DNA from: a virus
Taxonomy: Duplodnaviria; Heunggongvirae; Uroviricota; Caudoviricetes
Reading direction: 5' to 3' (one strand)
IMG/VR virus record: IMGVR_UViG_2737471830_000002
DNA length: 33,074 nt
The position numbers and the translations under genes were made by a program. Each line of letters opens with the position of its first letter. Positions within the stretch are counted from its first letter, which is position 1. Shown piece after piece: positions 28,309-29,833 of the stretch. Below the pieces are notes generated by a model. That model was not told the origin of the DNA and did not search any database. It worked only from the letters and a program-made list of their open reading frames with translations.

Positions 28309-29016
28309 ATGGATTTGAACAAATTCGATGAGCCATTCAGCCCTGAAGATATCGAATGGCGAATACAGCAAAGCGGTAAAACACGCGATGGCAAGGTGTG
28401 GGCTATGGTGCTGGCTTATGTCACGAACCGGGCAATCATGAAACGCCTGGACGATGTTTGCGGCAAAGCAGGATGGCGCAATGAATACCGCGATATTCCC
28501 AACAACGGCGGAGTTGAATGCGGCATATCAATCAAGATTGATTCCGAATGGGTAACCAAATGGGATGCTGCTGAAAACACGCAGGTAGAAGCCGTCAAAG
28601 GTGGTCGTTCCGGTGCAATGAAGCGCGCTGCCGTTCAGTGGGGAATCGGTCGGTATCTGTATAACCTTGAGGAAGGTTTCGCACAAACATCTCTCGATAA
28701 AAAGCAGGGGTGGCACAGGGCAAAACTGAAGGATGGAACAGGATTTTACTGGCTCCCTCCATCGCTGCCGGGATGGGCAATCCCAGCATCAGATAACAAA
28801 CCATCACCAGAAAATACCAACCAGAAATCTCCATCGGTTGACTGCGAACAAATCCTGAAAGACTTCAGCGATTATGCGTCAACAGAAACTGACAAGAAAA
28901 AACTCATCGAGCGTTATCAGCGTGACTGGCAATTAATGGCTGGCAACGAGGAGGCGCAGGCTAAATGCGTTCAGGTAATGAACATCAGAGTTAACGAACT
29001 AAAACAGGCGGCATAA
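28309..29016 (+). CDS. Rad52-family single-strand annealing protein (Sak-like recombinase)
   Basis: 235 aa; GGRSGAMKRAAVQWGIGRYLYNL resembles the Rad52 N-domain signature; immediately precedes ssb. Confidence 0.6.
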   Translation: MDLNKFDEPFSPEDIEWRIQQSGKTRDGKVWAMVLAYVTNRAIMKRLDDVCGKAGWRNEYRDIPNNGGVECGISIKIDSEWVTKWDAAENTQVEAVKGGRSGAMKRAAVQWGIGRYLYNLEEGFAQTSLDKKQGWHRAKLKDGTGFYWLPPSLPGWAIPASDNKPSPENTNQKSPSVDCEQILKDFSDYASTETDKKKLIERYQRDWQLMAGNEEAQAKCVQVMNIRVNELKQAA

Positions 29017-29523
29017 ATGGCAAGCAGAGGCGTAAATAAGGTGATTATCCTTGGTCGGGTAGGACAAGACCCGGAAGTTCGATACTCACCATCAGGAACA
29101 GCGTTCGCTAACCTGACAATAGCCACGTCAGAACAATGGCGAGATAAAAATACTGGCGAGCAAAAGGAATTGACTGAATGGCATCGTGTTGCTGTATCCG
29201 GGAAACTGGCTGAGGTCGTGGGGCAGTATGTGAAAAAAGGTGATCAGATTTATTTCGAGGGAATGCTGAGAACCAGAAAGTGGAAAGACCAGTCAGGGCA
29301 AGACCGTTACACAACCGAGGTTCATGTCGGAATTAATGGCGTGATGCAAATGCTTGGCGGCATTGGCGACAGCAAACAACAAGCAGCCAGCAAGCAATCA
29401 CAGAAGCCACAGCAGCAATCATCACCAGCACAACACAACGAACCTCCGATGGATTTTGACGACGATATACCCTTTGCACCAGTAACTCTCCCCTTCCCTC
29501 GTCACGCTATTCACGCAATTTAA
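29017..29523 (+). CDS. ssb: Single-stranded DNA-binding protein with C-terminal extension
   Basis: OB-fold N-terminus [44 protein letters not shown]...; acidic tip [11 protein letters not shown] is followed by [15 protein letters not shown] before the stop. Confidence 0.9.
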
Positions 29524-29536
29524 TCAGGAGAAAATC

Positions 29537-29833
29537 ATGCCAGCGCCTCTGTATGGTGCGGATGACCCGCGCCGCTGTTCCGGCAATTCCATATCGGAGG
29601 TGCTGGATAAATTCAGAAAAAACTACGACCTGATAATGTCGCTACCGCAGGAAACGAAAGAGGAAAAGGAATTTCGCCATTGTATATGGCTTGCAGAGAA
29701 AGAAGAACGCGAGCGAATTTACCAGACATCAATCCGACCATTCCGCAAAGCCACATATACCCACTTCCCTGAATATATCGACCCGCGCCTGCGTAATTAC
29801 CGCTCACGCTATGGCGCTATCAGTAATGACTGA
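29537..29833 (+). CDS. Hypothetical protein (98 aa)
   Basis: ORF with GGAG RBS following ssb. Confidence 0.45.

Follow-up and report, generated by a model that had tools for sequence, protein, structure and literature searches.

[quoted passage not shown] The window, i.e., the whole stretch of 33,074 nucleotides under analysis (IMG/VR record IMGVR_UViG_2737471830_000002), is a lambdoid E. coli (pro)phage, and its ssb gene occupies positions 29017..29523 of the plus strand. The first-pass annotation of this DNA noticed the extension, suggested that the phage SSB may fail to recruit host partners and could act as a competitor or decoy, and named a lost stop codon as the alternative. The free C-terminal Phe of SSB is viewed as a near-universal handle which recruits well over a dozen genome-maintenance proteins to ssDNA, and mobile elements that keep the tip yet bury it suggest a deliberate rewiring or insulation of this interaction hub.

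Layout of the extended ssb gene

The open reading frame (ORF) starts with ATG at 29017, ends with TAA at 29521..29523, and comprises 168 codons and the stop, the 168 aa product being the “SSB-1” of the lambdoid Rec module. The OB-fold ssDNA-binding domain (aa 6-104; 29032..29328; Pfam SSB 1.6e-36), modelled by AlphaFold2 as a beta-barrel, is followed by a Gln/Pro-rich disordered linker (aa 113-142; 29353..29442; pLDDT <50) and by the canonical 11-residue acidic tip (aa 143-153; 29443..29475), which matches the tip of E. coli SSB at every residue and is internal, not C-terminal. The F153 codon (29473..29475) completes the tip, and the conserved 15-residue extension (aa 154-168; 29476..29520) leads directly to the stop codon; all these features are on the plus strand. 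The TIGR00621 ssb model (3.7e-49, above the cut-off) aligns to residues 4-153 and stops at F153, which places the 15 residues outside the canonical end. Thus the protein possesses the OB fold (PF00436/TIGR00621) and the disordered linker with the D-D-D-I-P-F tip of a bacterial-type SSB, but its tip Phe has no free alpha-carboxylate, since 15 residues follow F153. ORF, translation, and model end agree in this respect with the first-pass annotation.

The gene upstream of ssb encodes a Rad52/22-type single-strand annealing protein (28309..29016, plus strand; Pfam PF04098, 5e-26), and its stop codon abuts the ssb ATG at 29014-29019 (TAAATG), an arrangement kept in relatives which suggests that annealase and ssb are translationally coupled. 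The next gene of the Rec module is the anti-RecBCD gene abc2 (29537..29833, plus strand; Pfam PF11043, 1e-62). The SSB-1 assignment is based on homology to the Sf6 and ES18 SSBs and on the slot between the annealase and the anti-RecBCD/nuclease genes of the early-left operon, and the gene order is the same in phage HK75 with its annotated pL, Nun, cIII, and kil.

In the AlphaFold2 monomer model built on a 69-sequence alignment the OB barrel is confident (pLDDT about 80-90), while residues 115-168 have pLDDT <50 and no secondary structure, so that in the model the extension has the character of a disordered short linear motif. The possibility that it docks in cis on the OB fold was considered and rejected, as the model contains neither contact nor structure there, a weak negative result which concerns the monomer only. 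A search of PDB chains for the extension found no solved structure that contains it.

By itself a read-on of this length is not informative: the chance that 15 random codons contain no stop is 0.49, and therefore any significance can come only from comparison with other sequences. Such comparison indicates that the feature is non-random, because both its length and its sequence are conserved across hundreds of independent alleles.

Spread and selective constraint of the extension

The ssb gene of the window is 99.6% identical to that of phage HK75, and the same allele, at an identity of at least 99%, is present in HK75, mEp235, and mEpX2, always extended. Extended genes are also found in Salmonella phages epsilon34 and g341c (88.8% identity) and in ECP1 and CP-1639 (about 73%). 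Among the best 120 protein clusters obtained with the whole protein as a query, about 110 have exactly 15 residues after (I/V)PF and only 7 finish at the tip. The extension family can be described by the pattern [AS]-P-[VIAL]-[TG]-L-[PQT]-[FY]-[PSG]-[RK]-H-x-[IVM]-[HY]-x-[IL]; the window carries the modal E. coli form, which matches [AS]P-x-[TG]-L-x-[FY]-x-[RK]-H-x-x-x-x-[ILV] at exactly 15 residues. A Salmonella cluster of 588 member sequences (P0001) ends in PRHAI, with a 12-residue extension devoid of the last three residues, and this natural partial truncation could be experimentally informative.

Among 5,426 complete genomes of E. coli, 297 have the fused junction of tip and extension, and in another 108 an endonuclease gene directly follows the Phe codon; the fused junction is also present in 91 of 120 viral contigs. 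The comparison of alleles at codon 154, proposed by the first-pass annotation, therefore identifies the extended form as the common one (297 extended versus 108 endonuclease-interrupted E. coli genomes), so that one half of a refutation named in that annotation applies. A degenerate DNA junction pattern retrieved 20 species-level genomes, which include Pseudescherichia, Lelliottia, Atlantibacter, Enterobacter, Kluyvera, Buttiauxella, Citrobacter, and Symbiopectobacterium as well as the Morganellaceae genera Providencia, Proteus, and Moellerella.

The extension is kept even in SSBs of only 60-70% identity and in other genera. Moreover, the same tip and extension are borne by a second OB-core subtype (N-terminus MAINxITxSGNV, ~153 aa, Pfam SSB 3.8e-18), which was found at seven loci (L129, L133, L134, L140, L141, L143, and L145), and this implies that different ssb genes either exchanged the tail or share a very old common ancestor. 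The gene directly upstream also varies, being of Rad52/22 type in the window, ECP1, and several others, of ERF type at L129, L134, L141, and L143-145, of RecT type in the Providencia loci, of AAA_24/Sak4 type at L154, L155, L157, and L158, and in Moellerella a gene for a YqaJ-type exonuclease. The presence of the extension depends neither on the OB-core subtype nor on the neighbouring recombinase family. A docking site for the cognate annealase was for this reason rejected as the general role of the extension, since four unrelated recombinase families adjoin it in phages and none on plasmids.

Some single loci deserve separate mention. A contig labelled Chryseobacterium sp. 18061 (CACSKA010000001.1) contains an enterobacterial-type Rec module of Rad52, ssb, and exonuclease genes, and contamination or mislabelling is likely. 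In a rearranged prophage remnant of E. coli EC931 (L002:2396-2573) a truncated holin gene adjoins what is left of ssb, its final 59 nt, and IS5 is close by; in another such remnant (L063) an unrelated 71-codon ORF runs into a 19-residue stretch of this kind.

The framing of the extended protein as a phage SSB holds in so far as it is present in phages, but the feature is not phage-specific, because IncN plasmids share it. The SSB of IncN conjugative plasmids ends in the tip followed by 15 residues of the same family, and the junction query retrieved 89 plasmid records of IncN type, 87 of them conjugative (extended genes, e.g., pTR4 L165:2005-2538, L166:1501-2031, and L146). The IncN ssb is located in the leading/anti-restriction region with no recombinase genes nearby; a gene of SprT-family metalloprotease adjoins it on the opposite strand and anti-restriction genes are close. 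Most plasmid SSB matches align only up to query residue 153, that is, without the extension. SSBs of F-type plasmids typically end at the tip.

A diverged form was found in Pseudoalteromonas. There IPF is the end of the housekeeping SSBs (108 of the 120 listed), whereas accessory prophage SSBs (P0210 and P0352-P0427; genes at L163:6001-6657 and L164:6001-6600) carry a conserved 14-residue extension, [AS]PIGLQ[YH]P[AGN]LLxxx, the first eight positions of which are common to the enterobacterial one. Among the best 150 representatives from a library of 1.84 billion proteins, 66 tip-bearing SSBs end at PF and 17 run on, the latter with several other types of short extension among them.

These sequence comparisons show that the extension is ancestral and the defining feature of a large SSB family on gammaproteobacterial mobile elements, which covers the Rec modules that temperate phages of lambdoid and P22-like type carry across Enterobacterales, the IncN leading region, and the diverged Pseudoalteromonas form. 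Other, apparently unrelated extensions after IPF were noticed in intact metagenomic SSBs (P0256, P0287, P0299, P0315, P0316, P0225, and P0309), some of 9 residues (AQHMKHTFI, SNYELRSVI, RQYQHRQLY, and AQVPYLAGI) and others of 11 (APYLSRKGYIV), 6 (APVPFY), or 5 (APEFR) residues. Buried SSB tips may be a wider phenomenon.

Selective constraint was estimated by region in 107 extended homologues, in the retrieval of which the extension was not a criterion. Mean pairwise identity was highest in the tip (0.95), followed by the OB fold (0.88), the extension (0.82), and the linker (0.46). The length of the extension was invariant; P155 and L158 were invariant as well, and F/Y160, R162, H163, I/V165, and I/L168 nearly so. 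For the codon analysis twelve alleles of maximal extension diversity were chosen from a set retrieved by whole-protein similarity, with their DNA obtained by exact-protein look-ups. Pooled pairwise (Nei-Gojobori) counts, which ignore phylogeny, gave dN of 0.14 for the OB fold, 0.60 for the linker, 0.07 for the tip, and 0.22 for the extension, with pS = 0.52 in the latter. Because synonymous changes pile up in the extension, the constraint acts at the protein level, and the direction is clear, the peptide being under purifying selection. An earlier dN/dS of ~0.15 was discarded, since it came from a pattern-retrieved set and the search pattern biased the estimate; at the nine unconstrained codons of that set nonsynonymous and synonymous counts were about equal. 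The lost stop codon is rejected, as the extension is family-wide, fixed at 15 residues, and under purifying selection.

The insertion site at F153/A154 and the 45-nt junction

The boundary between the F153 and A154 codons (29475..29476) is an empty insertion site, at which relatives hold an endonuclease gene of ~440-520 bp (Sf6, Huey, and ES18 gp47 types). In Sf6, Huey, and many prophages ssb halts after IPF and is followed by an endonuclease ORF of ~155-160 codons (Huey L005:1963-2445; Sf6 L006:1975-2463; the ES18 gene is at L149:2472-3031). The last 14 residues of the Sf6/Huey-type endonuclease are encoded by 45 nt identical to positions 29479..29523 of the window, and the TAA which ends ssb in the window (29521..29523) serves in these relatives the endonuclease gene instead. 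The insert thus reads into the extension codons, which explains the annotation of Sf6 gp26 as having “14 contiguous amino acids identical to E. coli SSB”.

The direction of this transfer can be judged from the endonucleases themselves. Most of 77 gp26 homologues end within a few residues of WHKHNKPIY, and the tail is found only in copies beside ssb; the Ala codon with which the extension begins survives in some inserted alleles (DEAPVTLPF); and in the AlphaFold2 endonuclease model residues 1-143 have pLDDT ~97-98, while the captured tail has 44-68. It follows from these data that the gene entered an already extended ssb between F153 and A154, and that the extension motif belongs to the SSB, not to the endonuclease. 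The opposite derivation, with the extension as a leftover of the endonuclease C-terminus after deletion, was rejected, since endonuclease homologues elsewhere are tail-less and far more diverged SSBs are extended.

The same observations bear on the more general explanation by accident, in which a stop codon was lost or an endonuclease deletion left a fused 3' end and the extension is neutral. It would agree with the identity of the last 14 residues to the C-termini of Sf6 gp26 and the Huey endonuclease, with the existence of a decayed endonuclease copy in Klebsiella phage phiKp_30, and with the even odds of a 15-codon read-on (0.49). Nevertheless, it is highly improbable and effectively refuted, as endonuclease homologues elsewhere have no tail; the extension is conservatively substituted in diverged SSBs, on IncN plasmids, and in Pseudoalteromonas (14 residues) without an adjacent endonuclease of this type; its dN is about one third of that of the linker; and recent transfer of a single block is contradicted by the pS of 0.52.

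The window and Huey differ at 1 position in 426 nt upstream of the insert and are identical over the 45 nt downstream, and the tip codons are recoded in 26 of 26 readable endonuclease-carrying alleles, which is an indirect hint that the enzyme may cleave the empty (extended-ssb) allele and be copied into it. The Sf6 and Huey types have the C-terminal half in common and differ in their N-terminal halves, whereas ES18 carries at the same site a different gene, gp47, encoding an unrelated HNH_3 protein (match 8.6e-13), and has wholly lost the extension. The decayed Sf6-type copy of phiKp_30 (L004:2350-2555) keeps ~24 nt of its beginning and ~70 nt of its end around unrelated sequence, and the extension codons there are diverged (PRHAAYAI). 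On this comparative evidence the 3' end of ssb is a recurrent insertion hotspot for mobile endonuclease genes. The inserts provide ssb with a stop codon, which restores the canonical free tip, and the Sf6/Huey type runs in frame into the extension codons. As a side observation, the Sf6-type endonuclease ORF is present in 98 complete E. coli genomes and is unannotated in the RefSeq records listed (e.g., NZ_CP027355.1, 416445-416881); it appears to be missed systematically by PGAP.

The 45-nt block (29479..29523, plus strand) is also a mosaic junction. On its upstream side lies either ssb or the endonuclease gene; downstream comes abc2, at 52 fused and 21 interrupted loci, or a gene of Rv2179c-like 3'-5' exonuclease, at 38 fused and 8 interrupted ones. 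It has 0 differences in 45 nt between the window and epsilon34, while the rest of ssb differs by 12.3%, and it is near-invariant among the E. coli and Salmonella phages (L007-L128), the ssb genes of which differ by 12-27%. This identity, the alternative modules on both sides, and the occurrence of the block alone in rearranged prophages would be expected if the DNA itself were constrained as a module-boundary or homing-site sequence with only incidental translation. Such an explanation is quite improbable, because the near-identity is confined to the E. coli/Salmonella phage pool; across genera the block diverges synonymously with the peptide kept, and IncN and Pseudoalteromonas have different DNA with the same peptide core.

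Proposed role and comparison with known systems

The best explanation as a whole, to which a probability of about 50% is assigned, is that of an ancestral, conserved, disordered extension that masks the tip from host partners and serves, alone or together with the tip, as a docking motif. The masking relies on the need for a free C-terminal Phe, on which the first-pass annotation is supported by published experiments. In E. coli SSB+Gly, where one residue follows F177, measurable binding of chi and DnaG is abolished and the protein complements poorly, only under slow growth (PMC3045619; PMC3632105); with ExoI, RecQ, chi, and probably also Redbeta, the key contacts are made by the side chain and carboxylate of F177 (PMC6393309). 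Since a single Gly has this effect, 15 residues should block canonical docking of the tip, and with DDDIPF no longer C-terminal, chi, DnaG, ExoI, RecQ, RecO, and PriA would all be affected. By this analogy the tip is probably masked from host partners, and the SSB of the element would coat its own ssDNA, either recombination intermediates beside an anti-RecBCD gene or the incoming T-strand beside anti-restriction genes, without drawing nucleases, helicases, and RecA loaders of the host. A role as competitor or decoy is conceivable, but has no support.

Simple masking leaves two facts unexplained, namely, that the buried tip is so strongly conserved and that phages with a free tip are viable. 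The tip is conserved above the OB fold (0.95), which would be odd if it were merely disabled, so some function must be left to it: it may regulate ssDNA binding in cis, take part in a composite motif, or be exposed once the protein is processed. Sf6, ES18, and Huey, in which the endonuclease insertion leaves the tip free, are viable phages, and plaque formation therefore does not require the extension. Both facts would be accounted for if the extended SSB were a pro-protein, cut after F153 by a protease of host or element with the canonical tip set free when or where it is needed, and conservation of the extension could then reflect protease recognition. Still, this is unlikely: the phage loci have no consistently co-occurring protease gene, and the SprT-like metalloprotease gene adjoins ssb only on IncN plasmids. 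No cytoplasmic processing site is known to resemble the IPF/AP boundary.

Conservation of the extension sequence itself argues for more than passive capping, as a simple cap needs no conserved sequence, and the extension, or tip and extension together, is probably a specific short linear motif. Its core, [AS]-P-hydrophobic-[TG]-L-x-[FY]-P, would bind a conserved partner, either separately or as a composite with the tip, and since the neighbouring element-encoded proteins vary, this partner is more likely a conserved host protein. The extension probably acts as a separate docking element. Alternatively, the extension might be a signal of stability or localisation, i.e., a C-terminal degron of ClpXP/Lon type or a plasmid type IV secretion signal, as a disordered C-terminal tail with small or aliphatic end residues preceded by Arg-His may suggest. 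Any resemblance to known degrons is presumably weak, and conservation peaks in the N-terminal half (P-x-x-L-x-[FY]-P), while the extreme C-terminus differs between Enterobacterales and Pseudoalteromonas. Plasmid SSBs are translocated to recipients by the F-like T4SS, which speaks for a secretion signal, although the same paper contains nothing specific on such a signal in the IncN SSB (PMC8406263). Phages have the same peptide and no T4SS, and both variants of this explanation are very unlikely.

The beta sliding clamp is the best candidate partner at the sequence level and should be taken as a lead only. The tight-binding Hda clamp motif QLSLPL and the extension segment PVTLPF are alike at 5 of 6 positions, a resemblance of sequence alone, and the clamp-binding consensus is QL[SD]LF or QxxLF (PMC12309361). 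Although the Leu and the aromatic residue are conserved, position 1 of the extension is an invariant Pro instead of the critical Gln, and many extension variants have at position 3 Gly, which weakens clamp binding (PMC12309361). It is rather doubtful that the extension serves as a docking peptide of portable kind (core P-hydrophobic-[TG]-L-x-[FY]-P) that tethers SSB-coated ssDNA to a host replisome hub and at the same time blinds DDDIPF. If it were so, phage intermediates and plasmid T-strands would be channelled to replication and not to repair, degradation, or SOS signalling, and after endonuclease insertion the same peptide would tether the nuclease.

The preferred reading of a masked tip with a docking motif is relevant to the ways in which recombination modules of phages and conjugative DNA on its entry escape host nucleases and SOS, and to the portability of annealase/SSB pairs in recombineering. 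It also concerns annotation, as extended proteins are labelled plain “ssb” and Sf6 and ES18, the prototypes in the literature, represent the interrupted form. Full-text literature search for the extension peptide strings gave no match, and the extension after the tip goes unmentioned in a 2025 survey of lambdoid Rec modules, according to which SSB-1 proteins “have not been studied experimentally” (PMC12315714). Apart from the Sf6 annotation note, the Sf6 genome paper being outside the literature searched, the extension appears to be undescribed; the window gene is an ordinary member of a large family, the defining feature of which appears to be both undescribed and experimentally tractable.

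Among known systems the homotetrameric E. coli SSB (PF00436/TIGR00621) has in common with the window protein the OB fold, the disordered Gln/Pro/Gly linker, and the acidic tip, but the latter protein has 168 aa (178 in E. coli), is an accessory copy on a mobile element, and has its tip buried by 15 residues. The closest described relatives, Sf6 gp27 and ES18 gp48 (SSB-1; Genome Res 2025, PMC12315714), belong to the same family and occupy the same position; these prototypes are endonuclease-interrupted and end in IPF, whereas the window represents the uninterrupted, commoner extended form. In SSB+Gly (Naue et al. 2010/2013), as here, a residue after Phe removes the free tip carboxylate, although that variant is artificial and one residue long, while the window-type extension is natural, 15 residues long, and sequence-conserved. 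Leading-region SSBs of conjugative plasmids are likewise accessory SSBs on mobile elements, and those of IncN share the extension.

The insertion site finds its parallel in free-standing HNH homing endonuclease genes of phages, as the presence/absence polymorphism between near-identical flanks, the several unrelated genes per site, the decayed copies, and the co-travelling altered flanking codons are all seen at F153/A154. As to function, the HK620 SSB (“SSB-2”) requires its six C-terminal residues, NDYPPF, for stimulation of the cognate Sak4 annealase (PMC5928155). Like the window SSB it is encoded beside its recombinase, but it is remote and non-homologous, with a free tip-like end and no extension; its NDYPPF nevertheless indicates that tails of phage SSBs can be partner-docking elements.
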